Part shown: positions 28,752 to 63,752 of the stretch, one piece after another | Numbering within the stretch: the stretch's first letter is position 1 | Layout of the letters: each line of letters opens with the position of its first letter | Assembly (NCBI GenBank): GCA_963535465.1 | Contig: CAUSWF010000002.1 | Location: forward strand, 64,606-128,605 | Origin: an uncultured Erysipelotrichaceae bacterium | GTDB lineage: Bacteria; Bacillota_I; Bacilli_A; RF39; UBA660 | Direction of reading: 5' to 3' | DNA: 64,000 nt | The notes under the pieces: model-generated | Database searches by the model: none | What the model saw: the letters and a program-made list of their open reading frames with translations, nothing else | Told to the model about the DNA's origin: nothing | Translations under genes and position numbers: made by a program

Positions 28752-28766
28752 TAAAAATTTTTAATT

Positions 28767-30199: not shown

Positions 30200-30304
30200 C
30201 TTAATTTAAAATAAAAAATTATAGCAGCAGCTGATAAAATTTACTGTAAATATTACAGTGATTATTACACATTTAAAAAATGGATAGAAAAATACAGACC
30301 AAGT

Positions 30305-30511
30305 TTGTTAGAAATTTTTGCTTTGTATGATTCGCAACAATGGGAAGATATAATTGAAAATAGTCACGATGAAGACCTTTTTGTATGTTATTTTCCTTAT
30401 TACTTAACTAAATGGCTTCTTTGGCGATGTCCTGTTAGTATCATTAGAGAAGAATTAGAAGAAAGAGGATATGAAACAAAATGGTATCATAAATTGTTTT
30501 TTAAGTATTAA
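30305..30511 (+). CDS. Hypothetical protein
   Basis: ORF-track ORF with a TTG start. The frame is open upstream to 30219 without an ATG. Confidence 0.4.
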   Translation: MLEIFALYDSQQWEDIIENSHDEDLFVCYFPYYLTKWLLWRCPVSIIREELEERGYETKWYHKLFFKY

Positions 30512-30514
30512 ACT

Positions 30515-30847
30515 ATGAATAAAGATGAATTATTTAAATTAAACTCAGAAATAACTGATTTAGAAATAAAATTAGCTAAATTAAAGAGTAAGAGGAAACA
30601 ACTACAAAATAATATAGACTGTTTAATCGGAAGCTATCTTACTAGAGGTAAGTTTTATTATAAAATACTATCTATAAATAAAGAGAAACAAACAATAGAA
30701 GCTTTATGTATAAATTACGAAGACGAAGAATATAGTATCTCTTTTCTTCCAGCTTTAAATTTTGAATATATTAATGGTTTAGCTTTAATGTCTTCAAAAG
30801 TATTTGAAAAACTGTATAAAGAAGTAATGGAAAAAATATCTAAATAA
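30515..30847 (+). CDS. Hypothetical protein
   Basis: ORF-track ORF. Confidence 0.5.
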   Translation: MNKDELFKLNSEITDLEIKLAKLKSKRKQLQNNIDCLIGSYLTRGKFYYKILSINKEKQTIEALCINYEDEEYSISFLPALNFEYINGLALMSSKVFEKLYKEVMEKISK

Positions 30848-30849
30848 TT

Positions 30850-31099
30850 ATGTTAGTATTTTTAATTTATATATTAGGAAATATTATTGCTTTCTTTTTA
30901 TCTTTACATGTACTTTATTATTATAGTAAAAATAATAGTTATATGGTAAAACACCAAAGAAGATTTTTTTGAAGAAGAAAGTCCGTTTATTATATTTGCA
31001 TTTATATTTTCTTGGGTTGGAGTACTTGGGTGCTTAATGTGTTATATTGGTATTTTATTTAATAAATTTATAAATTATTTATCTAATAAATGGTTTTAA
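30850..31099 (+). pseudogene. Small multi-TM protein gene split by a T7 homopolymer
   Basis: ATG 30850 gives MLVFLIYILGNIIAFFLSLHV...RRFF, with TGA at 30970. The +1 frame from 30971 continues as EEESPFIIFAFIFSWVGVLGCLMCYIGILF...KWF and has no start codon. Confidence 0.35.
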
Positions 31100-31782
31100 T
31101 GAATAAAGGAACTATTACTAAATTTAAGAATTGGATTTTAGAAAATTCAAATCTTAAGCTTTTAGAGAGTAAATCTACTGAAAGTATATATCTTACAAAT
31201 GATTCTTTAAAAATTAGAATTTCTGACCATATACAGGGTTCAGATCGTTCTAATATTCGATTTGATATAAGTATATTTATTCCAGAAGAAAGTAAACAAT
31301 ATATAGTTTCTATTGGATATAAAATTTATATTTATAATACTTTACTCGAAGTAAAGAATTTGTTAATATCTGTATTTAGAATTAACTTAGGAATTGACAC
31401 TACTACTATTAATAAAGCTGTAAATAAACAAAAAGAAGCAAATAAAGAAATTAACAGTGCATTATCGCAACAAATAGCTAATTTATCTAAGAAAAATAAT
31501 AAGTATAAAGTAAGACTAGCTAAGCTTAGTGAAAAAGCAACTAAATATGATAAACTAACGAAAGTTCATAATAAAAAATTAAAAGAGTACCAAAAGCTAC
31601 AAGCAAAATGTGGTTCTTTTATGAATGATATTTCGAAAGCTAAAGATATAATATCTGAATTGCAAAATAATCCCGATGCTAGAAAAGCTATTCAAATCTC
31701 TGATAAAACTTATTATATTGATAATTTTCCTAAGGATATACAAGACTTATTAAAAGAATCAATTCAGTATTATAACCAATAA
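31090..31782 (+). CDS. Hypothetical coiled-coil protein
   Basis: ORF-track ORF. Confidence 0.5.
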   Translation: MVLMNKGTITKFKNWILENSNLKLLESKSTESIYLTNDSLKIRISDHIQGSDRSNIRFDISIFIPEESKQYIVSIGYKIYIYNTLLEVKNLLISVFRINLGIDTTTINKAVNKQKEANKEINSALSQQIANLSKKNNKYKVRLAKLSEKATKYDKLTKVHNKKLKEYQKLQAKCGSFMNDISKAKDIISELQNNPDARKAIQISDKTYYIDNFPKDIQDLLKESIQYYNQ

Positions 31783-31787
31783 AAGTT

Positions 31788-31858
31788 TGGGATATGGTGT
31801 AATGGTAACACAGCGGGTTTTGATCCCACTATTCCTGGTTCGAATCCGGATATCCCAA
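31788..31858 (+). tRNA. tRNA-Gln (UUG)
   Basis: Acceptor TGGGATA/TATCCCA (U1-A72). D arm GGTGTAATGGTAACAC. Anticodon loop TTTTGAT. T arm CCTGG TTCGAAT CCGGA. Confidence 0.8.
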
Positions 31859-32018
31859 CAAAATAATTTACTAATTAAATTAAAAAATTATGAGTAAGAA
31901 AAATTTTGTAAATCTTATGCAAAAAAAGCATAAGGAGTTTGTTCAGTTTGCTAATGCAACTAACTATTATAAAAAACATAATATTGAAAATTTTTTAACT
32001 AAAGAATACGAATAAATT

Positions 32019-32498
32019 ATGGAAACAAGAGAATTAGTAATTACTATCCCAGAAGGATATGAAATTGATAAAGAAAATTCAACTTTCGAATGTATTAAGT
32101 TTAAAAAGAAAGTTAAGAAAATAGATACTTGGGATGATTTAGATAATATTTCTGGATATATGATAAATAATATGTCAGAAATTATTACTATACCTGTAAT
32201 TTCTGCAGAAGATATGGATAAAAATGTATTTATATCTGAAAAATATGCAAAAGCAGCATTAGCTTTAGCTCAAATCTCTCAGCTTATGCCTTATTATGGT
32301 GGTGAGATAACTGAAGAAGAGTGGAAAAATGTTAGGCTGAAAAAGTATGGAGTGTTATTGTACAATAGTAAAATAGCAACAAACATCTACTATGATACAA
32401 AACAAATGATTGGTTTCCATACAGAAGAACAGTTAAATAGATTTCTATATTTCCCAGAGAATATACAACTCGTAAAGGACTTATACATGGTAGGTTAA
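32019..32498 (+). CDS. Hypothetical protein
   Basis: ORF-track ORF. Confidence 0.5.
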   Translation: METRELVITIPEGYEIDKENSTFECIKFKKKVKKIDTWDDLDNISGYMINNMSEIITIPVISAEDMDKNVFISEKYAKAALALAQISQLMPYYGGEITEEEWKNVRLKKYGVLLYNSKIATNIYYDTKQMIGFHTEEQLNRFLYFPENIQLVKDLYMVG

Positions 32499-32583
32499 AA
32501 TAAAATAAAACAAAAATGTTGTAGGGATTTTGTACCTAAAGGGTTTTATTGAGGGTTAATAGATTACCTACTTTTTAAATATT

Positions 32584-33132
32584 ATGGATAATTTAGAAAA
32601 TTATTGTAAATTCCACAAAAAAATTTATTTTATAGATACTAATGGAGTTATTTACAAATACATTTATAATAGAAATACTTTTATAAAATTAACTCATTGG
32701 TCTATGGGTGAGGATCGTAGAATTTCTATTGAATATTTATCTAAAAAATATACTAATAAAGAATTAAAAATCCTTACTTCACAAAAAGCTAATGAATTAA
32801 CTAACCAATATTGGAATAATCTTACCAGAGAATGGGAATATGATGGGAGAAAATATAAAGTATTATCTATAAAAGATGCACTTACTCAAAATATTGACCC
32901 TGAAGATGATGGTAAATTACATATTTTTCCTGAAGAGTATTTTAGATATTATGTCGGTTTATATCGAAATAGAATAATTTGGTATACTTATACTTCTTAT
33001 AATTGTTCTTGTTTAATATTTAAATTTGCAGATATAAATAAACAACCATCAGTACTTAATGATTTTTGTGGATATATTAGTAGGAAAGGTATTCAACCTA
33101 TCTTAGACTGTGAAACTAATGAATTTATTTAA
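32584..33132 (+). CDS. Hypothetical protein
   Basis: ORF-track ORF. Confidence 0.5.
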   Translation: MDNLENYCKFHKKIYFIDTNGVIYKYIYNRNTFIKLTHWSMGEDRRISIEYLSKKYTNKELKILTSQKANELTNQYWNNLTREWEYDGRKYKVLSIKDALTQNIDPEDDGKLHIFPEEYFRYYVGLYRNRIIWYTYTSYNCSCLIFKFADINKQPSVLNDFCGYISRKGIQPILDCETNEFI

Positions 33133-33423
33133 AATATAATTATATAATGGACTGATTGTTTATGTTCGTTCAGTTTAAAAGAAGGATACAATATGTTGAA
33201 AACAACGGGAAAGCAATGTAAGTAATGAAGGCTTCGACACCGAACCAACTATATAATTTTAATTATGGGAAAACTTTTAAATCAATTAAAAAATTATTTC
33301 GAAAATACTCCTAAAGAAGTATTAGAGAAAGAAGCAAAAAAATTAGACTATCTCAATAAAATAGGTCCAGATGTTTTAGAGTATGCTAAAATAGTTAGAG
33401 GATATTAAATTTAATATATAAAA

Positions 33424-33612
33424 ATGAATACAATACAAGCTATATTGGTTATTCCAATAATATTTCTTGGATGGGTTTATTTTGCAGCTATTACTTCTTT
33501 GTGGCAAGATTATGTTAAAATAAATAATGTGGTTATTAATAGTTTATTATACCTATCATGTATGGCTATATCTACTATTCCATTTATACATTTACTAAAA
33601 TTAATTTATTAA
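33424..33612 (+). CDS. Small membrane protein
   Basis: ORF-track ORF with two hydrophobic segments. Confidence 0.45.
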   Translation: MNTIQAILVIPIIFLGWVYFAAITSLWQDYVKINNVVINSLLYLSCMAISTIPFIHLLKLIY

Positions 33613-33616
33613 AAAT

Positions 33617-34684
33617 ATGAAAAAATTTATTATTTTTATGATGGCTACTATGTTTAGCCTCATCACCAATGCTCAAACAGCATTACAAACAACTAAAGTA
33701 CTTGATAATACCTATATTGGTATTAATGGCGGTGTTACTACTCCTATGAGTTTAGATAAAGCACTTCCACTTAATCCAACTTTTGGTATTCGAGTAGGCA
33801 AGGACTTTACTCCAGTTATTGGTATAAATGTAGAAGGAACTACATGGTTTGGTTCTAATTTTGATCTTAAAATTGGTAAGAATATGTTTAGAGCAGTTAA
33901 TGTAGGTGTAAATCCAACTATTAACTTAACTAATCTATTTAAAGGTTATAATGGATCTCCTCGTAAGTTAGAATTTATAACTGTAACAGGTCTTGGTTGG
34001 TTGCATAACTTTGGAAATTCCAATAATTATCTTACATCTAAGATGGCTATAGATATGGTATGGAATCCATGCTCATTCTTAAGTTTTTATATAGAACCTG
34101 GAGTATTTTGGAATCTTAATCAAGGAAAGAATCAATTAACAAAAGTTTCTGGATTCTATGATAAACCTATGAATACTATGCCTTATGTAATTCAAGATAT
34201 TACACAATATAATAAAGTACAATTTACTAAAAACGGTGCTCAGTTATTTGTAAATGTAGGTATTACTTATAAATTTAAGACATCTAATGGAACTCATAAT
34301 TTTAAATTGTATAATATTGGTGATTTAAATAATGAAATTAATTCTCTTAGAAATGAACTTAATAAGAAACCTACAGAGATAATTAAAACAAAAACTAATA
34401 CTGTTGTTAATAATGTAGGTACTTATGTAATATTCTTTGCACAAGGTAGTTCTGAACTTTCTAATGATGCTTTACGTACTCTTGATAAAGTTAAAGGAGA
34501 TGTTATAGTTGAAGGTTTCGCTTCTCCAGAAGGATCTGCTGAGTTTAATCAAACTCTATCTGAAGAACGTGCTAAAATAGTTACTACATTCTTAAAATTA
34601 AAGAAAGTAAATGTTATTGAATCTGTTGGAAGAGGTGCTACAAGTAATACTTCTAATAGAGTAGTAATTGTTACTAATAAATAA
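33617..34684 (+). CDS. OmpA-family outer-membrane protein (signal peptide, beta-barrel-like N-domain, OmpA_C domain)
   Basis: MKKFIIFMMATMFSLITNAQT is a signal peptide. The C-terminus FAQGSSELSNDAL...VEGFASPEGSAEFNQTLSEERAKIV matches the OmpA C-terminal peptidoglycan-binding pattern. Confidence 0.7.
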   Translation: MKKFIIFMMATMFSLITNAQTALQTTKVLDNTYIGINGGVTTPMSLDKALPLNPTFGIRVGKDFTPVIGINVEGTTWFGSNFDLKIGKNMFRAVNVGVNPTINLTNLFKGYNGSPRKLEFITVTGLGWLHNFGNSNNYLTSKMAIDMVWNPCSFLSFYIEPGVFWNLNQGKNQLTKVSGFYDKPMNTMPYVIQDITQYNKVQFTKNGAQLFVNVGITYKFKTSNGTHNFKLYNIGDLNNEINSLRNELNKKPTEIIKTKTNTVVNNVGTYVIFFAQGSSELSNDALRTLDKVKGDVIVEGFASPEGSAEFNQTLSEERAKIVTTFLKLKKVNVIESVGRGATSNTSNRVVIVTNK

Positions 34685-34694
34685 TATTAAAAAA

Positions 34695-35159
34695 ATGAAG
34701 AATCTAATTTTATTTTTAATCTGTACTTTATTTTGTTTAACTTCATGTAAAGAACATTTTTCTGATGGAGAAAGAGTTGGCGTAGTAACTAAGTTTTCTA
34801 AAGCTGGAGTAGTTTGGGATTCTTGGGATGGACATCTTAATATTACTCAAACAGGAATGAACTCAGCTGGTGAACCTTTTGCTTTTTCATTAGATAATGA
34901 TAGAAACGATCAAGATTCTATTGTAGAGTTACTTACTGAAGCACAGCTTAAAGGTTGGAAAGTTAAACTTTTATATCATCAAGTTTGGGGTTTTAAGAAT
35001 GTTTTTCATAATAGAGGTGAATCTGATTACTTTGTTGATGGTGTAGAAATACTTGATAAGAATTTTTCAAAACCTTTAGAAATTATAAATAATAATAATA
35101 AAACTAAAGGAAGTGTTATTGATACTATTTACGTAGTTATTGATAAAAATAAACAATAA
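34695..35159 (+). CDS. Lipoprotein
   Basis: ATG 34695 gives MKNLILFLICTLFCLTSCKE, with lipobox LTSC. Confidence 0.6.
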   Translation: MKNLILFLICTLFCLTSCKEHFSDGERVGVVTKFSKAGVVWDSWDGHLNITQTGMNSAGEPFAFSLDNDRNDQDSIVELLTEAQLKGWKVKLLYHQVWGFKNVFHNRGESDYFVDGVEILDKNFSKPLEIINNNNKTKGSVIDTIYVVIDKNKQ

Positions 35160-35201
35160 AAGTAGCTGAGTCTTATTAGTTCCTCATTCAAAGAACTATA
35201 A

Positions 35202-35275
35202 CTCTCCTTAGCTCAACTGCAAAGAGCAACTTTCTTCTAAAAAGTGGGTTACAAGTTGGAATCTTGTAGGAGAGA
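35202..35275 (+). tRNA. tRNA-Arg (UCU)
   Basis: Perfect acceptor CTCTCCT/AGGAGAG. D arm GCTC AACTGCAAA GAGC. Anticodon arm ACTTT CTTCTAA AAAGT. T arm ACAAG TTGGAAT CTTGT. Confidence 0.8.
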
Positions 35276-35512
35276 CTAATTAGTACTTTATTTAATATGT
35301 TTAATATATTATTTTTTTATATTCTGTTATTTCTTTGTAGGATTTATATTGTCTCTTCCTTATATATACCTTACTGATAAATATTGTAAACTAAGTAAAT
35401 ATCGTATAGAAAATTTACCTTCATTTTTACTTATTTTATTTATCTGGCCCATATGTTGGACATTTATTCCTGTAATTATATTATTAATAATTCAACATAA
35501 AATTAAAAATTC

Positions 35513-35725
35513 ATGACATTTGGAGATTTTAAAAACGAAATAACTAGAGTAATTGAAAATAGACCTAAAAATTGGAGAAAAGGTCAAACTGTATTTAATT
35601 ATATTGAATCGAAATATGATGTTGCAAGAAGTGTGCAATATAGTGATAAAATTGATTGTTTTTATGATGATTCTAAAATTGAAGAATTTATAAAAGCAGC
35701 ATATAAAAGAATTATTAATTCTTAA
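35513..35725 (+). CDS. Hypothetical protein
   Basis: ORF-track ORF. Confidence 0.45.
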   Translation: MTFGDFKNEITRVIENRPKNWRKGQTVFNYIESKYDVARSVQYSDKIDCFYDDSKIEEFIKAAYKRIINS

Positions 35726-35739
35726 AACTATTAAAGCTT

Positions 35740-35923
35740 TTGACTATATTGAAGTCTGTTAGCAATAACAGTTATAATTTAGTAAAGAGGTTAAGACTTT
35801 CTGATGTGTAGAAAGTTTGGAGCCAACCTTATTATGGGTGAGGACTCTATTCCCATATTTTACATCTTTAGTAAGATTGTATTTCAAGATTAGCTATTCG
35901 AGAAAGTATTGCATATCTTGCGT
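35740..35923 (+). ncRNA. Structured non-coding region upstream of the tmRNA
   Basis: Hairpins ctgtta-gcaa-taacag and actttct-gatgtgt-agaaagt, nested in ggtt..aacc. No ORF. It ends at a terminator. Confidence 0.3.
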
Positions 35924-35950
35924 ATAGGTGGAAATATTCCACCTATTTTT
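35924..35950 (+). terminator. Intrinsic terminator
   Basis: ataggtgg-aaatatt-ccacctat, followed by TTTTT. Confidence 0.65.
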
Positions 35951-35954
35951 ATTT

Positions 35955-36273
35955 GGGGCTGTTTGGTTTTGATTGTATAAGGAAGTAAAAATAACATGCA
36001 AAGACTGATGGAAAGACATCAATTCAAATTAAATGCTAAGGTTATTCCTATGAACAGCTTTGCTGTTCGCATTGCAGCTTAATGACTGCCGAGCTGGTAA
36101 CTTGCTTAGGAACAGAAAAGTTACAAATTTATAATTAAGTTATCCCTTCTTTAAAAAGGAAATTTTCATATTGCTAAATAATATAAAGATGATGTAACAT
36201 CTATAAAAAACTAAGCATGTAAAATTATTTGAGGTATTTATACAAGACGAGAGTTCGAATCTCTCCAGCTCCA
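35955..36273 (+). ncRNA. ssrA: tmRNA (SsrA), phage-encoded
   Basis: The 5' GGGGCTG pairs with the 3' CAGCTCC, followed by A. T arm GAGAG TTCGAAT CTCTC. The conserved ACTAAGCATGTA element is present. The tag frame 36035-36082 ends GCAGCTTAATGACTGCC, as in the E. coli GCAGCUUAAUAACCUGC, and the predicted tag is AKVIPMNSFAVRIAA. Confidence 0.85.
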
Positions 36274-36374
36274 CTTTAGTTGGCTACTGACTACAAAATA
36301 GTAGATGACTTCTAGGGCCGTTCAACATGTAAACAACCTAGGTAATGGCATACCTGTTAAAATCAAAGCATGCT

Positions 36375-36406
36375 AAGGGTACTCATAAGAGTGCCCTTTA
36401 TTTTTT
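36375..36406 (+). terminator. Intrinsic terminator downstream of tmRNA
   Basis: aagggtactc-ataa-gagtgccctt, followed by a T-run. Confidence 0.7.
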
Positions 36407-36599
36407 ATATAAATCTAAAATAAATAAAGATAAAATTAGTAAATTAATATATGGAAGAATTAATAAGAGAATATGTCATTCCTATAAAACCTGTAGAAAT
36501 GATTGATTGTAGTTATCTACCCAACAAAAAGAGTAAATCACGTGCAGGGTCAACACCCTACGCAAGTAAGAGGAAAAATAAACATAAAAAGTAAATAGT

Positions 36600-37154
36600 A
36601 TGAAAATAGAATTACAATGTGATGATACAATCCCTATTCCTGAAGGTTGTAAAGCAGTTATCAAAGATGGAAATGTAGTATTTGAGAAAGAATTTAAGAA
36701 AGGAGATATACTTAGTTCTGGTAATATAATATTAATATTTAAAGAAACCCATGAAGATAATATAAGTCATTTTCGTTCCTATTATGATATTACTAACCAA
36801 GCTGACATCTGTTGGATTCCTGATAATGAGAATAACTATTGGGTTATAAAAGCTTTTCACCATGCTACTGAAGAAGAAAAACAGTTACTCTTCGATAAAA
36901 TGAAAGAGCAAGGACTGCTCTGGAATGCTGAAAAGAAGCGTGTCGAAAATATTAGGTGGAGAGCAAAGTATGACGAAAAATATTACTATGTTAGTACAGA
37001 AGGAATTGTATTAGAAGATACAGAAGGGTGTCATATTATTGATGATAATAGATATAAATTTGGCAACTATTTTCAAACAAAAGAACACGCAGAAGAAGCT
37101 TCTGATCGTATAAAAGAAACATTACAAAAATATCATGAAGATTTAGGATATTAA
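36600..37154 (+). CDS. Hypothetical protein
   Basis: ORF-track ORF. Confidence 0.5.
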   Translation: MKIELQCDDTIPIPEGCKAVIKDGNVVFEKEFKKGDILSSGNIILIFKETHEDNISHFRSYYDITNQADICWIPDNENNYWVIKAFHHATEEEKQLLFDKMKEQGLLWNAEKKRVENIRWRAKYDEKYYYVSTEGIVLEDTEGCHIIDDNRYKFGNYFQTKEHAEEASDRIKETLQKYHEDLGY

Positions 37155-37422
37155 ACTATAGCTAGATTTAGACTTGTAGATGTAAATAATAATAGAAATA
37201 TTATAGAACATTATCGTTCTGAAATGTTTCCAGGTGATAAGGGGAATAAGGATTTTGACAAAGATTATGCTGACTGCTTGTAAAGATTCAGTGATGAACT
37301 TCATTTTGTAGATTATGAAAATTCTTCTCCTAATTTAGAAACTCAAATTACTTATGATGATAAAGTTTAGGATTATATGTCAGATCCTATAGAAGATTTT
37401 TATAACTTATAAATAATAAAAT

Positions 37423-37785
37423 ATGAATAATAAATTAAAATGTGTACCTTTTATCATTAAAAATGATAATAAAACACCATGTGGTTATGCTAATGGTTAT
37501 GTAGCTGTTCCTATAACTCATTCTTTATATGAAAGATATTATTTTGATGATGTTGAAGACTTTATAGATGTACATGGAGGATTAACTTTAAGTGAACATT
37601 TCGAGTCTTTTAGAAATGCTGATATAATTCCTTTAACTACTGATATTATATCTGAACATAGTTGGGTATTTGGCTTTGATACAAAGCACTACGATGATAA
37701 TAAACGTAATTGGGATAGATTAAATTGTATTGATGAGACTTTCAAGTTATTAAAACAATTAGAAGATTACGATAAAGAAAATTGA
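37423..37785 (+). CDS. Hypothetical protein
   Basis: ORF-track ORF. Confidence 0.5.
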   Translation: MNNKLKCVPFIIKNDNKTPCGYANGYVAVPITHSLYERYYFDDVEDFIDVHGGLTLSEHFESFRNADIIPLTTDIISEHSWVFGFDTKHYDDNKRNWDRLNCIDETFKLLKQLEDYDKEN

Positions 37786-37847
37786 TTTAAGTCAATTTGA
37801 TAAAAAATTTAATTTTACTATTTTTGAAAAAGTAAATTTAAATAAAT

Positions 37848-37921
37848 GGGTTAGGTAGTGTTAATGGTCAGCACGATTGTTTGTGGCACAATTAGTTTGA
37901 GTTCGAGCCTCAATTTAACCC
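37848..37921 (+). tRNA. tRNA-His (GUG) with encoded G-1
   Basis: G-1 at 37848 lies opposite C73. Acceptor GGTTAGG/TTTAACC. Anticodon arm ATTGT TTGTGGC ACAAT. T arm TTGAG TTCGAGC CTCAA. Confidence 0.8.
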
Positions 37922-38087
37922 CAAATCCATCCTAATACTAAGTATTAACTAAAAATTAATAGCGATGATTAGAAAAATGAAAAAGTTAATTAAGAAATGT
38001 GGAATAATTTATGCTGAAAATTTCTATAAACTTAATAAAAAAGTAATAGACGCAGGATTATTTCCGCTTATCTAAAAAATTTAGATT

Positions 38088-56731: not shown

Positions 56732-58837
56732 ATGATTGTAATTAAAAGAGACGGACGAAAAGAACAATTTAATGAAAACAAGATTAAGAAAGCTATTTCA
56801 AAATGTTACTTAGCTAATGACGAACTGCCAGATGAAATACAAATTAACAAGATTGTATCAGAGATAGAAAATTTAACTGATGAATTAACAGTAGAAGAAA
56901 TACAAGACTTTATAATTAATGATTTAGAAGATTTAGATATAGCTCAATCTTATAAAGAATATAGAGAACAACGAAATAAAATTCGAGACTTTAAATTAAA
57001 TCAAAAATTTTACAACACTGTTACTGAATTAGTTGATAGGAAACAAAACGAAGCATCTAAAGAAAATTCTAATAAAGATGCTACTCAAATCCATGTAATT
57101 AGAGATTTAATCGCAGGAGAAACTTCACGTAAACTTTATAATGAACTTATAATGCCTAAGAAATTACGTGAATTACATGAAAAAGGAATACTTCACGTAC
57201 ATGATACTGACTATAGATTACAACAAAATGAGACTAATTGCGAGCTATCAAATCTTGAAGATACTCTAAGTAAGGGAACTGTAATGAATGGCAAATTCAT
57301 TGAACCACCTAAGAGTTTAAGAACTGCTTGTACTGTGGCTTCTCAAATTATTACAGCTGTAAGCTCATCTACTTATGGAGGGCAAACTATTACTATGTCA
57401 CATTTAGCTAAATATGTTAAAGTATCCAAAGAAAAGATAACTAAGAAAATGGCTAAGTTAAGAGTTACTGATCCTAATGTAGTTAATGCTTTATTACAGG
57501 ATGAAATTAAAGACTCAATACAAACTTTACTATATCAGTTGAACACTATCTCTTGTACTAACGGACAGAGTCCTTTCATAACGTTATTTTTATACCTTGA
57601 TGAGAAACCAGAGTATAAAAAAGAAACTTTAATGCTTTGTAAAGAGGTAATTAAACAACGCATAGAAGGAATGAAGTCTCCTTCTAGATATATTATTAGT
57701 CCTACATTCCCTAAATTAGTAATTTGTTTAACTGATAAAATGTTTATTGAAGGTACTCCTGATTATGAATTTGCAAAATTATGTGCTAAATGTGTAACAA
57801 AACGTATGGTTCCAGATTTCATATCTGAGAAGAACATGAAGGCACTTAAAGAAGGATGTGTAATACCGCCAATGGGATGCAGAAGTATATTACATCCTTG
57901 GAAGGATAAGAACGGTAATTATCAAATATACGGTAGAAATAATGTTGGTGTAATATCAATTAATTTACCATATTTAGCTCTTGAAAGTAAAACTATAGAA
58001 GAATTTTATGGTAAACTTGAAGATATGATTGACTATGTGTCTAAGACACAAAAATCTATCTATGATGTTATTGTAGATTCTCCTGTAGATATTGCTCCTA
58101 TACTTTATATGTATGGAGTATTAGATAGAGCTAAATCAGGAACTAAAATTAAAGATGTCATTGGTAATTGTAAATGTTCTGTATCTATAGGATATATGGG
58201 AATTGCAGAATGTGTTGAACGATTTGGAATAAGTTATAATACTAAAGAAGGGCATGATTTAGGTATTAGTATTATTAAACATATGTTTGATAGAACTAAT
58301 TACAATAAAGAAAAATATGATATAGCTCTTAGTTTATATGGGACTCCTGCCGAGAGTTTGACCACGAAGTTTGCTAAAGCATTAAAAGTATTTCCAATTA
58401 TCCCTCATGTTAATGATAGAACTTATATTACTAATAGTTATCACATTCCTGTTGAAACACATATAGATGCTTTTAGTAAGATGGATTTTGAATCAGAGTT
58501 TCAGAAATACTCTACAGGTGGTGCGATTTCTTATGTTGAAGTACCTGATGTTCGTAATAATCCAGAAGCAATCTTTGAATTAATGAAACATATATATGAT
58601 GTAATGGTTTATTGTGAGATAAATACTACATCATGTTCAATTTGTTATAATTGTGGTTTTGAAGGTGAAATAGAATTATCAGAAGATGGTACTCATTGTA
58701 CTTGTCCTAATTGTGGATGTACTGATCCTTCAAAATTACATGTTATCCTCCGCTCTTGCGGATATCTTGGTGAGTATTCATTAGGAACATCTATTGGAAG
58801 AGCTGGAGATATAACTAATAGAGTAAAACATTTATAA
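56732..58837 (+). CDS. nrdD: Anaerobic ribonucleoside-triphosphate reductase (class III RNR)
   Basis: N-terminal ATP-cone (VIKRDGRKEQFNENKIKKAI), Zn site CSICYNCG...CPNCGC, and glycyl-radical motif RSCGYLG. Confidence 0.9.
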   Translation: MIVIKRDGRKEQFNENKIKKAISKCYLANDELPDEIQINKIVSEIENLTDELTVEEIQDFIINDLEDLDIAQSYKEYREQRNKIRDFKLNQKFYNTVTELVDRKQNEASKENSNKDATQIHVIRDLIAGETSRKLYNELIMPKKLRELHEKGILHVHDTDYRLQQNETNCELSNLEDTLSKGTVMNGKFIEPPKSLRTACTVASQIITAVSSSTYGGQTITMSHLAKYVKVSKEKITKKMAKLRVTDPNVVNALLQDEIKDSIQTLLYQLNTISCTNGQSPFITLFLYLDEKPEYKKETLMLCKEVIKQRIEGMKSPSRYIISPTFPKLVICLTDKMFIEGTPDYEFAKLCAKCVTKRMVPDFISEKNMKALKEGCVIPPMGCRSILHPWKDKNGNYQIYGRNNVGVISINLPYLALESKTIEEFYGKLEDMIDYVSKTQKSIYDVIVDSPVDIAPILYMYGVLDRAKSGTKIKDVIGNCKCSVSIGYMGIAECVERFGISYNTKEGHDLGISIIKHMFDRTNYNKEKYDIALSLYGTPAESLTTKFAKALKVFPIIPHVNDRTYITNSYHIPVETHIDAFSKMDFESEFQKYSTGGAISYVEVPDVRNNPEAIFELMKHIYDVMVYCEINTTSCSICYNCGFEGEIELSEDGTHCTCPNCGCTDPSKLHVILRSCGYLGEYSLGTSIGRAGDITNRVKHL

Positions 58838-58839
58838 TT

Positions 58840-59052
58840 ATGGAAGATTGTATAAAAATAATTCATAATGAAAATAATTCATTTACAGTTTCTTACAAAG
58901 ATAAGTATGCTGATGAATTATGTTGGGAAGAAATGTTAGGTTTAATTGCTAGTTTAACTATTAGTAGTAATAAACCTTGTCAACAATGGTTACGAACAGA
59001 CGAAGAACATGAAAAATTCAATCAATCTTTACGTAAATACTCAACAGTTTAA
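58840..59052 (+). CDS. Hypothetical protein
   Basis: ORF-track ORF. Confidence 0.45.
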   Translation: MEDCIKIIHNENNSFTVSYKDKYADELCWEEMLGLIASLTISSNKPCQQWLRTDEEHEKFNQSLRKYSTV

Positions 59053-59220
59053 AAATAAAAAATTTATAAATTATGGATGAAGAATTGTTTGATAAAGAGT
59101 TGCAAAAAAGACTTGGAATAGTTTATCACAAAGAAACTGGCACAGTTAGTGTCTGTGGTTATATTCCAGATCCTATTGCTTATACTAATATAGCAATATA
59201 TAAACAAATCATGGGAATGA

Positions 59221-59703
59221 ATGCTTAACATTTTAGAAATAAAACAATATGATGTTATCAACGGTCCTGGAATAAGATGTTCTATTTGGGTAGCTGGATG
59301 CAATAATCATTGCGAAGGTTGTTGGAGTCCTCATACATGGAATCCAAATCAAGGTAGACCTTTAAAAGAGTGTATTCCTGAAATTAAGAACTATCTTAAT
59401 AATCCGAAAGTAACTGGAGTATCTATATTAGGTGGAGATCTATTTTATCATTTATTTAATGGAGATTATAACGATGTAGTAACATTATTAATGCTATGTC
59501 ATAGTTATAATAAACCTGTATGGGTATGGACTGGTTATACAAAAGAAGAAATAGATAAACGTTTACAAGAATTACGTATACCTAAATTATTAAATGCTTT
59601 TGTAGATGTTCTTATTGATGGACGATTTGATATTACTAAAAAAGATATGAACCTTAAATGGAGAGGTTCCTCAAATCAAAGAATAATTAAAATAAATAAA
59701 TAA
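59221..59703 (+). CDS. nrdG: Anaerobic RNR activating enzyme (radical SAM)
   Basis: DVINGPGIRCSIWVAGCNNHCEGCWSPHTW contains CxxxCxxC. Confidence 0.85.
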   Translation: MLNILEIKQYDVINGPGIRCSIWVAGCNNHCEGCWSPHTWNPNQGRPLKECIPEIKNYLNNPKVTGVSILGGDLFYHLFNGDYNDVVTLLMLCHSYNKPVWVWTGYTKEEIDKRLQELRIPKLLNAFVDVLIDGRFDITKKDMNLKWRGSSNQRIIKINK

Positions 59704-59728
59704 CTTAAGCTCACTATATTAATTTATA

Positions 59729-59992
59729 GTGAGCTATTTTTATGTACTTATGGAGTTAACTTATACAGATGGTTGTATTGCTACTAGTCTTGATATAGAT
59801 GGAGTAGAAAGTATTGATATGAGTATTGAAGACTTTAGAAAAGTTATTCATAAAATTGTTGATAATATTAATGATTTAGCATCACTACAAACTATTTTTA
59901 CTGATTTTGTAGAATGTAATGGTAAACTTGTTAATGAGTATCATTGTGATTGTTGTGGTGATTATGTTACTACTTATACAATAACTATATGA
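59729..59992 (+). CDS. Hypothetical protein
   Basis: ORF-track ORF with a GTG start. An alternative ATG lies near 59750. Confidence 0.45.
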   Translation: MSYFYVLMELTYTDGCIATSLDIDGVESIDMSIEDFRKVIHKIVDNINDLASLQTIFTDFVECNGKLVNEYHCDCCGDYVTTYTITI

Positions 59993-60267
59993 AAAAATTT
60001 AAATTAATTAGGTCCGAAGTTATACCTGTAATGGTTACTTCAACTATAGAAATAGAAGCTGAAAATTTAAAAGAAGCTATAGAACAGGTAGTTGAGGGTG
60101 AAGGTGATATACTTTATACTTCAGAAGATGTAGTGGATTATGCGTATAATATAGAAAAGTATGCTGATAACGCTACTTTATCTATATATGATACTAATAA
60201 TAAATTATTATATAATGATAACGAAACATTTGCTTATGGGCACAATCCATACAAATGTTTTGAATAA
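59989..60267 (+). CDS. Hypothetical protein
   Basis: ORF-track ORF. Confidence 0.5.
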   Translation: MKKFKLIRSEVIPVMVTSTIEIEAENLKEAIEQVVEGEGDILYTSEDVVDYAYNIEKYADNATLSIYDTNNKLLYNDNETFAYGHNPYKCFE

Positions 60268-60293
60268 ATATTAACTTTTTAAAAATTAAAATT

Positions 60294-60635
60294 ATGAATA
60301 AGTTTGAAAAATTAATTAGTGCAAACAGTAATTCAACATTAAAACGTCGTGCAGGCATTATTAGTAATGAAGCTAAAATGGCTCAAGAAGATATTGTAGC
60401 TACGATTAAACGTGCAATCAATCAGGAAGAACTTAAATTAATGAGCCTTACCGACTTTGCTCCTTCACATACTACGAGTTTACAACCAGGTAATTTTGAG
60501 CAAGGAGGTGCTACAGAATGGGCACAAGAATTACAAAAGTGTAAGGAAAATATTTATAATTTGAATATTAAACTTCAATTAGCTAATGATACTTATAAAG
60601 AGTATTTCGCTGAAGAAAATATAGAGGAGGTTTAA
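60294..60635 (+). CDS. Hypothetical protein
   Basis: ORF-track ORF. Confidence 0.5.
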   Translation: MNKFEKLISANSNSTLKRRAGIISNEAKMAQEDIVATIKRAINQEELKLMSLTDFAPSHTTSLQPGNFEQGGATEWAQELQKCKENIYNLNIKLQLANDTYKEYFAEENIEEV

Positions 60636-60637
60636 TC

Positions 60638-60937
60638 ATGGGACCACGTAAAGTTTTTAATTTTAAAGTTAAAGAGATAATTGGATACATTGAACATTAT
60701 AACGGAAATTCAGGTGAAAGCAGTAATGATGAGAATATTGATTCAGTAGATATTTATTTATCTGGAGGTAAAGTAGTTACTTTAGATCTAACAGATGATC
60801 CTCTTAATGGCGATGAACTTGCTAAAATCTTAGGATATAATTCTGACTATTGGGATACTTTGTACGGTAAAGAAAATCCAACTAAATTACTTAGATCTGA
60901 ACTGAAATCCAAATCAACATATAATCCTTATGAATAA
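60638..60937 (+). CDS. Hypothetical protein
   Basis: ORF-track ORF. Confidence 0.5.
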   Translation: MGPRKVFNFKVKEIIGYIEHYNGNSGESSNDENIDSVDIYLSGGKVVTLDLTDDPLNGDELAKILGYNSDYWDTLYGKENPTKLLRSELKSKSTYNPYE

Positions 60938-61280
60938 AGAAACGGAAGCTAAATACGATAAATTATATGAGAATTATTTAGAAAATTATTATTCTGATAT
61001 TCTAAAAAGAAAGGAATTTTTTGACATCCTAACTAAATATTCTGATGATCTTCCAAAAGATTATGAATTAGAAAATTATGATGTTGAATATTTTTCTTTT
61101 GAAGAGCAATTAATTACGGATATTATCCAATATAATTGTGATGATGCTTATATTTATATCAATATTGATAAAGTAGAAATTGAAGATATAGAAGATATTT
61201 CTGAAAAAGATCTTAATTATATTGTTAAATTTTGCAAGAAACATAATTTAGATATAATAAATATCAATAAAAGAAATTAA
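60930..61280 (+). CDS. Hypothetical acidic protein
   Basis: ORF-track ORF. Confidence 0.5.
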   Translation: MNKETEAKYDKLYENYLENYYSDILKRKEFFDILTKYSDDLPKDYELENYDVEYFSFEEQLITDIIQYNCDDAYIYINIDKVEIEDIEDISEKDLNYIVKFCKKHNLDIININKRN

Positions 61281-61285
61281 TTTAA

Positions 61286-61471
61286 ATGATTTTAGATAAT
61301 TTAATAGGGAAAAGTATTTATATTAGATTTAAAAGAAATAGTTATAGTTCTAATAAAAATGTTATTTTATTAGAAGTTAATAACTTTGGTATATGGATAA
61401 AAGAGGGGAATTATGATCATCGTTTCTATCCGTATAATAGTATTGAATATATTTCAACTGATAATTTATAA
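61286..61471 (+). CDS. Hypothetical protein
   Basis: ORF-track ORF. Confidence 0.45.
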   Translation: MILDNLIGKSIYIRFKRNSYSSNKNVILLEVNNFGIWIKEGNYDHRFYPYNSIEYISTDNL

Positions 61472-61475
61472 AATT

Positions 61476-61925
61476 ATGCTAAATGATAAGTTAGATTCTA
61501 TGATTATAGAATCAAGAAAAAGTAATAATTCGGATAAATTAAGAGTATTACAAGCTATTAAATCTGAATTTAGTAAAGTTATTCATTCTAAACAAATTTT
61601 AGATGAAGCTAAAGAATTAAAAATTCTTAATAAAATGTATAAGGAACGTGTAAATTCTGCTAAAATTTATGAAGAAAATGGAAGAAAAGATTTAGCTAAA
61701 ATAGAAAATGCAGAAGCTAGAGAACTAAATCCATTTTTACCTGAAAGAATTAATGAATCTGTGATTATAACATTTACTGAAGATTATATTAAATCTTTAA
61801 ATAGAGATATTTCTATGAAGGATTCTGGGCTTATTATTAAAACAGTTAAAAATAAGTATCCTAGTGCTGAAGGTAAATTAGTAAGTAATATAATTAAACA
61901 ATTTGTAAATAATGGAAATAAATAA
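61476..61925 (+). CDS. GatB/YqeY-domain protein
   Basis: ATG 61476. LRVLQAIKSEFSK...LNKMYKERVNSAKIYEENGRKDLAKIENAEARELNPFLP matches the YqeY/GatB C-terminal domain pattern. Confidence 0.6.
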   Translation: MLNDKLDSMIIESRKSNNSDKLRVLQAIKSEFSKVIHSKQILDEAKELKILNKMYKERVNSAKIYEENGRKDLAKIENAEARELNPFLPERINESVIITFTEDYIKSLNRDISMKDSGLIIKTVKNKYPSAEGKLVSNIIKQFVNNGNK

Positions 61926-62079
61926 ATCTTTATTTGAAGAAAGATGTTATTATGAAATTTATCATACTTTATTAAATCTTTTTGAGTATTTTGTTAAACA
62001 TATTAATTCTTATAACGAATTAAGTGAAGAGGAAAAACAACTTTGCCCTAAAAATATATTTGATCAATTAGTTGTATAA
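61912..62079 (+). CDS. Small hypothetical protein (55 aa), paralog of the next gene
   Basis: SYNELSEEEKQLCPKNIFDQL versus SYDELTKEEKEIFPKDIFENL in 62081..62257. Confidence 0.4.
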   Translation: MEINKSLFEERCYYEIYHTLLNLFEYFVKHINSYNELSEEEKQLCPKNIFDQLVV

Positions 62080-62080
62080 T

Positions 62081-62257
62081 ATGGAAGTAAATAAACTTTT
62101 ATTCAAACCTATTAAAGTTCCTGTTGAATTTTATTATATGTTGTTAAGACATCTTCAATATTCTATTAAAGATATAGAATCTTATGACGAATTAACTAAA
62201 GAAGAAAAAGAGATATTTCCTAAAGATATATTTGAAAATTTAATAATTAAAAAATAA
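62081..62257 (+). CDS. Small hypothetical protein
   Basis: ATG 62081 within track ORF 62072..62257. Confidence 0.45.
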   Translation: MEVNKLLFKPIKVPVEFYYMLLRHLQYSIKDIESYDELTKEEKEIFPKDIFENLIIKK

Positions 62258-62258
62258 T

Positions 62259-62651
62259 ATGTTATATTTTACAATAAAATTAGCAGAAAATAGTACTTAT
62301 AACTATGAAGTAGATAAAATTAGTTATAATATTGAAAATTTTAATACAAAAGAAATCATATTTTATACATCTAAAAATTTAAATAAAGGAGATATTATAG
62401 ACTTTTGGGAATTAAAGGATTACGATGTTTACTCTGAATATGTTTATAAAATATTAGATTCTAATAAAAATATTGCTACAGTCATAGATTATGATGACAT
62501 TTATGATGTAATTAGTTATGAATATACTAACATGATGATTGTAGTTAGAATAGAACAACTATTTTATGATAAAAAAGAAATAATAGATATTATGGAACGC
62601 ACTAGTGAAATATTATGTGATATATGTGAACTAGATATTCCAATTTACTAA
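62259..62651 (+). CDS. Hypothetical protein, paralog of 62669..63049
   Basis: Both start MLYF and share length and composition. Confidence 0.5.
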   Translation: MLYFTIKLAENSTYNYEVDKISYNIENFNTKEIIFYTSKNLNKGDIIDFWELKDYDVYSEYVYKILDSNKNIATVIDYDDIYDVISYEYTNMMIVVRIEQLFYDKKEIIDIMERTSEILCDICELDIPIY

Positions 62652-62668
62652 TTAAAAATTAATCAATT

Positions 62669-63049
62669 ATGCTATATTTTTCAATACAACATCCTAATGA
62701 ATACGATCTAGAATTTGCATGTCTTTTATGCGTTTCAAAAAATATAAATGATATTAAGAGTTCTTTAATATTTAAAACTGATGATGATTCTGTTACAATA
62801 AGAGACGAAGATAGTTTAGACTTTTATGAAGTTTATTCTGGGAGTTATGCAGTATTACAATATATGGATGGTTTTAAGTTTAGATCATTTGATATGAGTA
62901 TAGATGCTACTTCCGAATATTATGCAGATTATTTTGATAATGAATCAATAAAAGAAATGAAGGAATGTAAATACTATATTAAAAAAGATGGAAAAATTAT
63001 ATTAGAAAAAGATATAACAGATAACATTAAAAATTTAGTAAATGCATAA
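62669..63049 (+). CDS. Hypothetical protein
   Basis: ORF-track ORF. Confidence 0.5.
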   Translation: MLYFSIQHPNEYDLEFACLLCVSKNINDIKSSLIFKTDDDSVTIRDEDSLDFYEVYSGSYAVLQYMDGFKFRSFDMSIDATSEYYADYFDNESIKEMKECKYYIKKDGKIILEKDITDNIKNLVNA

Positions 63050-63752
63050 CATATTAATTGTTCCAGATATTCATGGTAGAACTTTTTGGAAGAAATTAAA
63101 TCCAAATGATGCTGATTTAATTATATTTTTAGGAGATTATACTGATCCATATAATAATGAAAATATAACTCCTGAAATGGCTATAAATAATCTTAAAGAA
63201 TTAGTAAATTTCTATAATAAATATAAGGATAAATGTGTCTTCTTAAAAGGAAATCATGATTATCCTTATATATCAGAATTATATAAAAAGAACTTCGATT
63301 ATTTGTGTAGATATGATTATGAACATGAAGAAGAAATAGTTTCTTTATTAAAAGAACTAAATCTTAAAGATTGTTATATCATTAACAATTATATATTTAG
63401 TCATGCTGGTTTTAATAATCATTATTGGAAACTAATTCAACCTGGATTTAAAGTAGGAGAATCTATTAGTGATGTATTATCTAATTACCCAGAATTAGCT
63501 GCAAGAGTATCTTGGAGAAGAGGTGGAGTTTTTAATTATGGTAGTCACGTTTGGGAAGATTTACATTATTTTCTTGAAAGTTCTCCTAATAAAGAATTAT
63601 CTAAGTATATTCAAATATTTGGACATACCTTTATAAAAGAAGCTATACATCATAATAATTGTTACTGTCTAGATTGTCAAGATATATTTAAATTAAATTT
63701 AGAAACACGTAAATTATGTTATGCTTCAGGAAAAGAAATTACCGAAATATAA
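63042..63752 (+). CDS. Ser/Thr-phosphatase-type metallophosphoesterase
   Basis: VPDIHGR, FLGDYTD, KGNHD, SHAG and FGHT. Confidence 0.75.
   Translation: MHNILIVPDIHGRTFWKKLNPNDADLIIFLGDYTDPYNNENITPEMAINNLKELVNFYNKYKDKCVFLKGNHDYPYISELYKKNFDYLCRYDYEHEEEIVSLLKELNLKDCYIINNYIFSHAGFNNHYWKLIQPGFKVGESISDVLSNYPELAARVSWRRGGVFNYGSHVWEDLHYFLESSPNKELSKYIQIFGHTFIKEAIHHNNCYCLDCQDIFKLNLETRKLCYASGKEITEI

Follow-up and report, generated by a model that had tools for sequence, protein, structure and literature searches.

A stand-alone YqeY protein in a TAG-recoded gut phage, a possible RNA adaptor of large phages

Bacterial YqeY proteins, such as those of B. subtilis (1NG6), C. jejuni (8XJE) and V. parahaemolyticus (8XJG), have a seven-helix, two-lobe fold. 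Their gene commonly shares an operon with rpsU and is co-regulated with it (PMC1865053, PMC13374519, PMC12054373); in Bacteroides-type genomes it adjoins serS or ftsZ, not rpsU. [quoted passage not shown] Bacterial GatCAB reportedly recognizes its tRNA by the first acceptor-stem pair together with the D-loop (PMC2811023). In Deinococcus radiodurans, a homologous YqeY domain is covalently tethered to GlnRS and raises efficiency on tRNA-Gln about 100-fold or more, but it acts in cis only: in isolation it neither shifts a tRNA-Gln transcript nor rescues truncated GlnRS in trans (PMC1865053).

In phages, YqeYs are gathered in PHROG 1460 as stand-alone proteins of roughly 145-150 aa encoded by large phages, with examples in Xanthomonas phages XacN1 and Xoo-sp13, Stenotrophomonas phage RAS14, Bacillus phage FADO, Vibrio phage 2.275.O, the Lak phages, pf16 (gp65) and crAss-like phages. 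The protein described here is alike in these respects, and is an unexceptional addition to a family that catalogues already list and on whose role others have speculated. One such gene, encoding a YqeY-motif protein, adjoins the tRNA clusters of Pseudomonas phage pf16, and a role in tRNA charging has been suggested (PMC5587285), as has a role in TAG-to-Gln recoding for phage YqeY genes (bioRxiv 10.64898/2026.08.21.746148). Suppressor charging in TAG-recoded phages is a recognized problem: few phages encode a synthetase, and stimulation of a side reaction of the host GlnRS has been proposed (bioRxiv 10.1101/2021.08.26.457843). [quoted passage not shown]

We analyzed a stretch of 64 kb (hereafter the window) from the genome of a gut phage, about 160 kb in all. 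Its initiation signals suggest a host among the Bacteroidota: Shine-Dalgarno motifs precede 3 of 57 gene starts in the window, against a background of 12%. Its ORF at 61476..61925 on the plus strand has its own ATG start and TAA stop, encodes 149 aa and contains no in-frame TAG. The start is the real one, because every homologue begins at MLNDKLDS; an alternative ATG at 61413, giving 170 aa, was rejected on this ground. The original prediction of a YqeY domain in this ORF was correct, and the assignment is far beyond chance. Pfam PF09424 (YqeY) matches with an E-value of 6.5e-22 (78.6 bits against a cut-off of 27) and spans residues 4-142, that is, profile positions 2-141 of 143; PHROG 1460 matches at 1.6e-13, and the solved YqeY chains 8xjg, 1ng6 and 8xje are matched in sequence at 1e-8 to 2e-5. 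An AlphaFold2 model (mean pLDDT 92) has seven helices, and its closest folds in the PDB are the stand-alone YqeYs, with 1ng6 first (TM 0.79-0.80, rmsd 2.9 A over 147 columns; Foldseek) and 8xje and 8xjg also matched with a probability of 1.00. We thus confirm a genuine, conserved, full-length stand-alone YqeY protein, like the bacterial ones in length and in its two-lobe fold. It is basic, with a pI of 9.4.

Its differences from the related modules are equally clear. A GatB fragment or a pseudogene is ruled out, as the match to YqeY spans the whole domain, the fold is predicted with confidence and the gene is conserved in synteny. Unlike GatB, the protein lacks the catalytic cradle (GatB_N), and Pfam gives YqeY alone; the GatB tail profile PF02637 does not match even at E-values up to 1; and the C-lobe of the model consists of three helices only (residues 94-107, 114-127 and 133-147), with no extra helix alpha14 to be seen. 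Nor is it fused to a GlnRS core: it is free-standing, in contrast to the Deinococcus domain, and a synthetase domain was not found in the Pfam-scanned parts of the window. The label "tRNA amidotransferase" carried by PHROG 1460 is a misnomer, since the catalytic domain is absent, and the same annotation, commonly given to phage genes of this type, is wrong.

The late genes of this phage use TAG as a glutamine codon; that the phage is recoded in this way had been predicted. In-frame TAGs are many in the genes between about 1.5 and 15.3 kb and absent from those at 16-64 kb, and reading through them lifts coverage by ORFs of at least 100 aa from 0.67 to 0.79. In the recoded block (about 1553..15273, both strands), whose ORFs yielded PHROG matches, we find a transglycosylase or baseplate-hub-like ORF with 22 TAGs (9328-10470), an 810-aa ORF with 19 (10751-13183), a lysozyme-like ORF (13170-13697) and a 449-aa ORF with another 19 (13924-15273). 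Where orthologues are aligned, glutamine is the residue most often found opposite TAG, and in one case TAG falls on a Gln conserved in three solved homologues; PDB searches with two other recoded proteins found no further TAG-aligned residues.

Two CUA tRNAs, both confirmed by Rfam, stand in tandem on the minus strand at the boundary between the recoded and standard-code parts. The first, supA (15782..15870; 89 nt, Rfam 57.7 bits), has a variable arm of about 20 nt and shares its first acceptor pair and T-arm with the second, supB (15876..15948; 73 nt, Rfam 54.1 bits). Both were detected by ARAGORN and carry U1-A72, the pair typical of tRNA-Gln. As reference for such features we took the ordinary phage tRNA-Gln (UUG) at 31788..31859 on the plus strand (ARAGORN; Rfam 53 bits): apart from supA, it is the closest tRNA of the window to supB, which has A73 and a D-arm resembling that of this tRNA. 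These features show that the suppressors are of the Gln type, again as predicted. In seven contigs of the clade supA is 100% identical over the aligned 89 nt and supB about 99% conserved. The tRNA-Gln belongs to a tRNA-rich region (25014..37922, plus strand; ARAGORN and Rfam) with tRNAs for Phe, Met, Ser, Glu (two), Trp, Gln, Arg and His, a further tRNA seen by Rfam only (25268-25353) and a tmRNA (35955-36276). These tRNAs are possible further clients of a tRNA-directed factor.

The YqeY gene itself is found far from all of them: within the window, the nearest tRNA is 23 kb away and the suppressors are 45.5 kb away. It belongs to a standard-code run of early or middle genes on the plus strand (56732..63752), in which several adjacent ORFs overlap by a few bases, and which comprises NrdD (56732-58837), NrdG (59221-59703), eight small ORFs, YqeY, four small ORFs and a calcineurin-like phosphoesterase (63042-63752; Metallophos, E 6e-9) that lies 1.1 kb downstream of YqeY. 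Pfam matches NRDD, ATP-cone and Gly_radical in this run, while the small neighbors of YqeY match no Pfam family and have no recognizable function. The setting is therefore one of replication and nucleotide metabolism, and differs from that of bacterial yqeY beside rpsU, serS or ftsZ. Pfam scans of the ten neighboring ORFs (59.7-63.7 kb) and of the 67 ORFs at 16-57 kb, packed as ten artificial polyproteins, found only RNase H, a glucosaminidase, an AAA_24 protein and the metallophosphoesterase. In these parts of the window, itself 64 kb out of some 160 kb of genome, they returned no synthetase, release factor, Pth, CCA enzyme, bS21, kinase or RNA ligase, and neither gatA nor gatC.

YqeY and its surroundings are conserved across the clade. 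Homologues at 48-99% identity occur on contigs of 155-170 kb with gene order kept, as in the 170-kb relative L001, and share an invariant core of LRVLQAIKSEFSKVIHS plus R58, R70, P89 and K141. Identity to cellular proteins is 20-40%; among those that bear a name, the YqeYs of Bacteroidota come nearest, at 31-35%. In a rough neighbor-joining tree the gut-phage subgroup that includes our protein separates from the cultured jumbo-phage and bacterial sequences. A megablast of 40-64 kb against the phage collection gave no match, so that a close cultured relative is absent from it, and tblastn with the YqeYs of MT835492 and MT835470 retrieved no further named phages from the same collection. Most carriers of YqeY are large phages, and tRNA sets are present in several that we checked (this phage, a clade of jumbo gut phages, and pf16). 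In cultured phages the gene neighborhoods are heterogeneous, with genes for NAD salvage, NUDIX, macro, Pth2 and thymidylate functions.

What the protein does has to be read from these comparisons, and we know of no stand-alone YqeY with a demonstrated function. The linkage of bacterial yqeY to rpsU, or to serS in Bacteroides, allows more than one reading. We lean, tentatively and at slightly less than even chances, toward a non-catalytic adaptor for structured RNA, probably tRNA, that would be a general translation accessory of large phages and not a dedicated part of a code switch. What we infer here is that the protein binds RNA or tRNA, that it serves as an adaptor, and which partner it has. 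While held by YqeY at its corner or on its D-loop side, a tRNA would be worked on by a partner enzyme, either an aminoacyl-tRNA synthetase or an RNA end-healing enzyme. Such an adaptor could keep the tRNA pool usable during infection, a pool that would comprise the 11 or more tRNAs of the phage itself and its two Gln-type CUA suppressors. The family and fold of the protein, its conserved core and gene order, its basic pI, a TAG-free ORF that can be expressed ahead of any code switch, the association of phage carriers with tRNAs, the fusion to a phosphatase domain described below and the binding of tRNA-Gln by a tethered homologous domain all argue for this adaptor model. Against it stand the failure of the isolated Deinococcus domain to bind tRNA-Gln, the 23 kb to the nearest tRNA and 45 kb to the suppressors, the heterogeneity of phage neighborhoods, the confinement of the fusion to one lineage and the lack of recognizable function among the neighbors. 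The Deinococcus precedent invoked in the original prediction speaks against a factor acting in trans: the tethered domains of Deinococcus GlnRS and GatB raise tRNA-Gln binding, whereas the free Deinococcus domain binds no tRNA.

A second lead to the function of these proteins comes from the standard-code lineage of MT835470. In part of it, YqeY is fused to a HAD_SAK_2 domain (21 loci and two diverged variants, 84-99% identity), and HAD_SAK is described as the family of the linear phosphatase of phage RNA repair (PMC7824862). The YqeY part of these fusions is 32-37% identical to our protein, among its closest homologues outside the clade, but our protein lacks the phosphatase domain, and a HAD_SAK homologue is absent from every ORF of the window. 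We had considered P0196, P0199 and P0201 as independent multi-domain fusions and rejected this, the YqeY part being common to all three; because these fused representatives share one YqeY part, the fusion is one event in one lineage.

The fusion suggests that YqeY could be the RNA-recognition subunit of a tRNA repair pathway, in which host or phage tRNAs cleaved by host anticodon nucleases would be handed first to an end-healing phosphatase and next to a ligase. MT835470 speaks for it, since its genome has no tRNAs of its own and its YqeY must therefore act on host RNA. So does the phosphoesterase that follows YqeY in the same gene run of the window, since calcineurin-like domains reportedly carry out the phosphatase step when certain jumbo phages repair RNA (PMC7824862), and so does a ligase with a weak RNA_ligase signature encoded a few kb further on in L001. 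Yet the run is long, so that a distance of about 1 kb to the phosphoesterase means little; the L001 ligase is primarily a match to DNA ligases; and the scanned parts of the window contain no polynucleotide kinase, RtcB or Rnl-type RNA ligase. Moreover, the fusion is a single lineage-specific event, and elsewhere within that lineage YqeY stands alone and its surroundings contain no HAD gene. We consider a role in tRNA repair unlikely on this evidence.

Another reading, the one put forward as speculation in the original prediction, makes YqeY a component of the code switch. The phage protein would act in trans to boost the formation of Gln-tRNA on the CUA suppressors by host GlnRS, or by ND-GluRS with GatCAB. 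A small phage protein promoting suppressor charging would, if this were true, represent a code-switch factor of a new class, and could be put to use for amber suppression in Bacteroidota. Its attraction is evident in a TAG-recoded phage with two Gln-type CUA tRNAs and an acknowledged gap in how such tRNAs are charged, for which stimulation of a host GlnRS side reaction has been proposed. The gene is written in standard code, as expected of a switch component and as a Jade-type factor would be; its ORF is free of TAG and lies in the standard-code part, and can therefore be made before any code switch. Unlike the factors of the Jade module, it is not clustered with the suppressors.

The distribution of the gene gives this idea both its main support and its main difficulty. 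YqeY is paired with tandem suppressors in 4 of the 5 YqeY-bearing contigs of the clade that reach at least 100 kb, and related YqeYs occur in three further gut-phage lineages that are TAG-recoded or carry CUA tRNAs. The group of MT835492 is strongly recoded (reading TAG through raises coverage from 0.51 to 0.91), and an exact pattern for a Gln-type CUA tRNA is found in 6 of its 24 contigs; the suppressor of this group was met by chance among the matches listed (at least 120) of the general pattern TCTAA...GGTTCGAATCC. In a clade of 278-317 kb jumbo gut phages, a CUA tRNA lies 9 kb from YqeY, and a cluster of 7-8 tRNAs including a CUA tRNA begins some 2 kb away from the gene. The third lineage, the Lak phages, is reported as recoded in the literature. 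The suppressor-charging idea stays open because of this co-occurrence in the clade and in three further lineages. But the count of four recoded lineages is biased, since all were found by similarity to the protein of a recoded phage, and the suppressor of the jumbo clade has G1-C72, which is not Gln-like. On the opposite side, 36 contigs of a sister lineage of gut phages have related YqeYs, late giant ORFs that are intact in standard code, and no match to either of two suppressor patterns; MT835470, the one fully read genome among them, has no tRNAs, and its portal, terminase and tail-fibre genes are intact. Standard-code phages of six named host genera (Xanthomonas, Stenotrophomonas, Bacillus, Vibrio, Salicola and Pseudomonas), cultured jumbo phages among them, also carry YqeY. 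The gene is thus not peculiar to recoded phages. Loci of 10 kb on either side of YqeY say nothing on recoding, the gene always being in an early block compatible with standard code. That the family spans recoded and standard-code gut phages provides a natural contrast set for a test of association.

Biochemical precedent also weighs against a code-switch role. In the sole biochemical test, a YqeY domain aided GlnRS when tethered to it but not in trans, and the free domain bound no tRNA (PMC1865053). Stand-alone YqeY also lacks the Lys-rich motif and helix alpha14 that the GatB tail has been modelled to place near the tRNA variable loop (PMC2811023). GatCAB reportedly reads the first acceptor pair and the D-loop, not the anticodon (PMC2811023), and therefore the anticodon change of the suppressors should not weaken the GatCAB step, contrary to the weakened recognition on which the original prediction was built. 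With a homologous domain restricted to cis action and the gene also present in standard-code phages, a trans-acting link to suppressor charging was left unsupported, and we find a code-switch role rather improbable. In its most specific form, the idea casts the YqeY of TAG-recoded gut phages as the missing protein of the switch, acting in trans so that the Gln-charging machinery of the host accepts CUA tRNAs, including supA with its unusual long variable arm and perfect conservation. This would, if true, answer how recoded phages charge suppressors without a synthetase of their own; we give it quite a small chance.

An action on the ribosome instead of on tRNA, with YqeY as a partner of bS21 in tuning initiation where host ribosomes dispense with Shine-Dalgarno pairing, would fit the yqeY/rpsU operon and its co-regulation, unpublished evidence for joint binding of OLE RNA by YqeY and bS21, and the scarcity of Shine-Dalgarno motifs that suits a Bacteroidota host, but is very improbable given that yqeY of the Bacteroides type adjoins serS or ftsZ and that a bS21 (rpsU) gene was found neither in the window or any fetched related locus (with a weak two-sequence profile) nor by Pfam at 16-57 and 59.7-63.7 kb. 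Outside phages and bacteria, the mitochondrial YqeY homologue AIM41 sits bound in Pichia complex I.

The 149-aa ORF at 61476-61925 of the forward strand (ATG start, TAA stop) is genuine and under selection, and encodes a stand-alone YqeY protein of a phage that recodes TAG to Gln. The YqeY domain that had been predicted from the sequence was recovered by profile search, PF09424 spanning the ORF end to end (E 6.5e-22; 78.6 bits against a Pfam cut-off of 27 bits), and PHROG 1460 (E 1.6e-13) together with sequence and fold matches in the PDB agree on this identity. The sequence matches among solved structures are the stand-alone YqeYs 8xjg, 1ng6 and 8xje, and an AlphaFold2 model built from 51 homologues (mean pLDDT 92, seven helices) has significant fold matches with stand-alone YqeYs only, the best being 1ng6 of B. 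subtilis (TM 0.79-0.80). The GatB catalytic domain is absent from the ORF, and the GatB-type tail profile PF02637 gave no report for it up to E 1. Compared with the GatB tail, the C-terminal lobe of the model consists of three helices, without the extra helix bearing the Lys-rich motif, which has been described as missing from stand-alone YqeY (PMC2811023). Because it has neither the catalytic domain nor a GatB-type tail, the label "tRNA amidotransferase" given to the family in PHROGs and in several phage papers is a misnomer. A longer reading from the ATG at 61413 was rejected: it overlaps the preceding ORF and is used by no homologue, all of which start with MLNDKLDS.

Contigs of 155-170 kb carry homologues of the protein that are 48-99% identical to it and share an invariant N-terminal core. 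In the 170-kb relative L001, gene order is that of the window (NrdD, NrdG, small ORFs, YqeY, metallophosphoesterase) and continues with dCTP deaminase, ligase, sigma factor and DNA polymerase. In L001 an ORF bearing homing-endonuclease motifs (NUMOD3) interrupts NrdD (3569-6834), which suggests an intron; the NrdD of the window (56732-58837) is continuous. The clade comprises seven IMG/VR contigs, and the tandem-suppressor pattern is found in four of the five that reach at least 100 kb. YqeY and the suppressors go together throughout the clade, and it therefore offers no internal contrast to exploit.

Recoding in the window (27.9% G+C) is a local effect. With TAG read through, ORFs of 100 aa or more cover 0.79 of the window, against 0.67 otherwise; in-frame TAGs are frequent in genes on both strands at about 1553-15273 (22, 19 and 19 in ORFs of 380, 810 and 449 codons), and the in-frame TAG map shows none in the genes at 16-64 kb. 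Among the products of the recoded block are a transglycosylase/baseplate-hub-like and a lysozyme-like protein; the unrecoded part encodes, among others, a helicase, DnaB, a primase-like protein, RNase H, NrdD and NrdG. At 19000-64000, early ORFs stop at TAA (47), TGA (6) or TAG (4). Also inside the recoded block lies a 638-aa ORF (5777-7693, reverse strand) that holds no TAG: it has an exonuclease N-terminus (phrog_298), its central ~350 aa match unrelated families (terminase, primase, DnaC), and its LAGLIDADG-like motif and terminal HNT would be the pattern expected of an intein.

The two CUA tRNAs, supB (15876-15948) and supA (15782-15870, 89 nt), both on the reverse strand and confirmed as tRNAs by Rfam, stand in tandem at the boundary of the recoded and unrecoded parts. 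They share a U1-A72 first pair and A73, and the D-arm of supB is nearly identical to that of the window's tRNA-Gln(UUG). Across the seven clade contigs supA is 100% identical over the 89 aligned nucleotides and supB about 99%, despite proteins diverged to 50-94% identity. Where TAG faces a sense codon in clade orthologues, in either direction, Gln is the commonest partner (25/73), followed by Lys and Glu, and TAG codon 100 of the lysozyme-like ORF (13170-13697, forward) aligns with a Gln that three solved homologues have in common. Given these acceptor features, the supB D-arm, the Gln partners and the conserved Gln, the original prediction fairly described a phage needing a charged Gln-type amber suppressor. 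Codon 11 of the same lysozyme-like ORF, also TAG, aligns with Leu/Phe/Leu. The phage has two suppressors of differing structure, and TAG may not be read as Gln everywhere. The variable arm of supA is class II-like (~20 nt), its U1-A72, A73 and T-arm matching the Gln-type suppressor 5 nt upstream. Elsewhere, a tmRNA (35955-36276, forward; Rfam 72.8 bits; predicted tag AKVIPMNSFAVRIAA) lies within a tRNA-rich region, an 86-nt tRNA at 25268-25353 (forward) is called by Rfam and missed by ARAGORN, and an ARAGORN tRNA-Arg at 35202-35276 (forward) scores below the Rfam gathering score.

Only 3 of 57 gene starts at 19000-64000 have a Shine-Dalgarno-like motif upstream, fewer than the 12% background, and A predominates at positions -3 to -5. 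These start signals and the nearest named cellular YqeYs, which are those of Bacteroidota, suggest a Bacteroidota host.

The most defensible mechanism, which we hold tentatively, is that YqeY would act as a non-catalytic adaptor on tRNA or another structured RNA, assisting a partner enzyme. A more specific role, in which the free protein would help host GlnRS or GatCAB to accept the CUA suppressors, appears unlikely. It runs contrary to the only direct biochemical test of a YqeY domain: in Deinococcus GlnRS the domain does raise efficiency with tRNA-Gln, but only if covalently attached; a tRNA-Gln transcript stays unshifted by even 50 uM of the isolated domain, which also fails in trans to restore binding by the truncated enzyme (PMC1865053). 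The reported recognition elements of bacterial GatCAB are the D-loop and the first acceptor-stem pair of its tRNA substrates (PMC2811023), so that the anticodon change, expected to weaken recognition, would matter for GlnRS or ND-GluRS but not for GatCAB.

The distribution of YqeY bears on this charging role in both directions, and carriers with the standard code, one of them read complete and free of tRNAs, count against it. Searching ~50,000 phage records by tblastn, we found YqeY in the cultured Xanthomonas phages XacN1 and Xoo-sp13, the Stenotrophomonas phages CM1 and RAS14, four Bacillus phages, Salicola SCTP-2 and a 349-kb Vibrio phage, all large phages that presumably use the standard code. 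The same search gave 15 records of Lak megaphages, which are reported to be TAG-recoded (bioRxiv 10.1101/2021.08.26.457843). Two uncultured gut-phage genomes were read complete. MT835492 (121.6 kb) has YqeY and strong TAG recoding (coverage 0.51 to 0.91), and longer members of its group carry a Gln-type CUA tRNA (6/24 contigs by exact pattern). In MT835470 (117 kb) the code is standard (coverage 0.94, with portal, terminase, tail-fibre and giant ORFs intact) and tRNAs are absent, yet its YqeY, 37% identical to that of the window, is among the closest outside the clade. Late giant ORFs beside YqeY were likewise intact in the standard code in the seven loci sampled from its group, at least one per subgroup, and neither suppressor pattern matched any of its 36 IMG/VR contigs. 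In a jumbo clade (278-317 kb), 7-8 tRNAs are clustered ~2 kb away from YqeY, among them a CUA tRNA, which has a G1-C72 pair and is not Gln-like. A rough neighbour-joining tree clusters the YqeYs of these gut phages (window clade, jumbo clade, MT835492 and MT835470 groups, Lak) apart from bacterial and cultured-phage sequences. Four of these five lineages are recoded or bear a CUA tRNA and the fifth, a large one, is not. The count is suggestive, but it is biased by finding lineages through a recoded phage's protein, and genome size, habitat and host all confound it. The co-occurrence survey falls cleanly on neither side, and suppressor charging in trans keeps a small probability. Both the gene family and the charging idea are already in the literature (PHROG 1460; bioRxiv 10.64898/2026.08.21.746148; PMC5587285): in the T4-like Pseudomonas phage pf16 a YqeY-motif protein adjoins tRNA clusters, which hold neither a Gln nor a suppressor tRNA, and a tRNA-charging role has been speculated for it (PMC5587285). 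The finding is of modest interest, unless an association test and charging assays prove positive.

Of the two main alternatives, a role in tRNA repair is equally improbable. Some members of the MT835470 lineage, which uses the standard code, have YqeY fused to an HAD_SAK_2 RNA-repair phosphatase domain, so that it forms the C-terminal half of a protein of 301-310 aa (MT835470.1, 29901-30806, forward), found in 21 loci (L122, which is MT835470.1 itself, L152-L170 and L175), one variant at 84% identity. The literature describes this HAD family as the linear phosphatase in the RNA repair of phages, some of which use calcineurin-like enzymes for that step (PMC7824862), and the gene run of the window YqeY contains a calcineurin-like phosphoesterase 1.1 kb downstream. 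The fusion arose in one evolutionary event and an HAD_SAK gene is absent from the window and from other members of the MT835470 lineage, so it is a hint that phage YqeY works beside an RNA-acting enzyme and not proof of repair in the window phage. In some variants (P0196, P0199) the HAD part is truncated or replaced.

Free YqeY occurs in organisms without GlnRS, usually beside the S21 gene, which led the authors to consider other functions probable (PMC1865053), and newer work, which still calls YqeY uncharacterised, mentions unpublished OLE RNA binding with bS21 (PMC13374519, PMC12054373). A ribosome- or bS21-linked role for the phage protein is nevertheless very doubtful, scans of parts of the window having detected no bS21. 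They likewise gave no synthetase, release factor, Pth, CCA enzyme, polynucleotide kinase or RNA ligase.

The neighbours of YqeY are heterogeneous in cultured jumbo phages (NAD salvage, NUDIX, macro domain, Pth2 and thymidylate genes). NAD-related genes surround it in four cultured and uncultured jumbo-phage loci (L188, L190, L191, L110), encoding NAD synthetase, NadM/NUDIX, nicotinamide phosphoribosyltransferase, a macro domain protein and an NMNAT-like product, a grouping that may merely reflect a shared accessory-gene region. Among bacteria, yqeY comes after ftsZ on contig GCA_947501625.1, and in Bacteroides-type genomes (L192-L195, ~5001-6848) it lies 67-127 nt upstream of serS with queA close by, whereas Firmicutes and Francisella are known to pair rpsU with yqeY.
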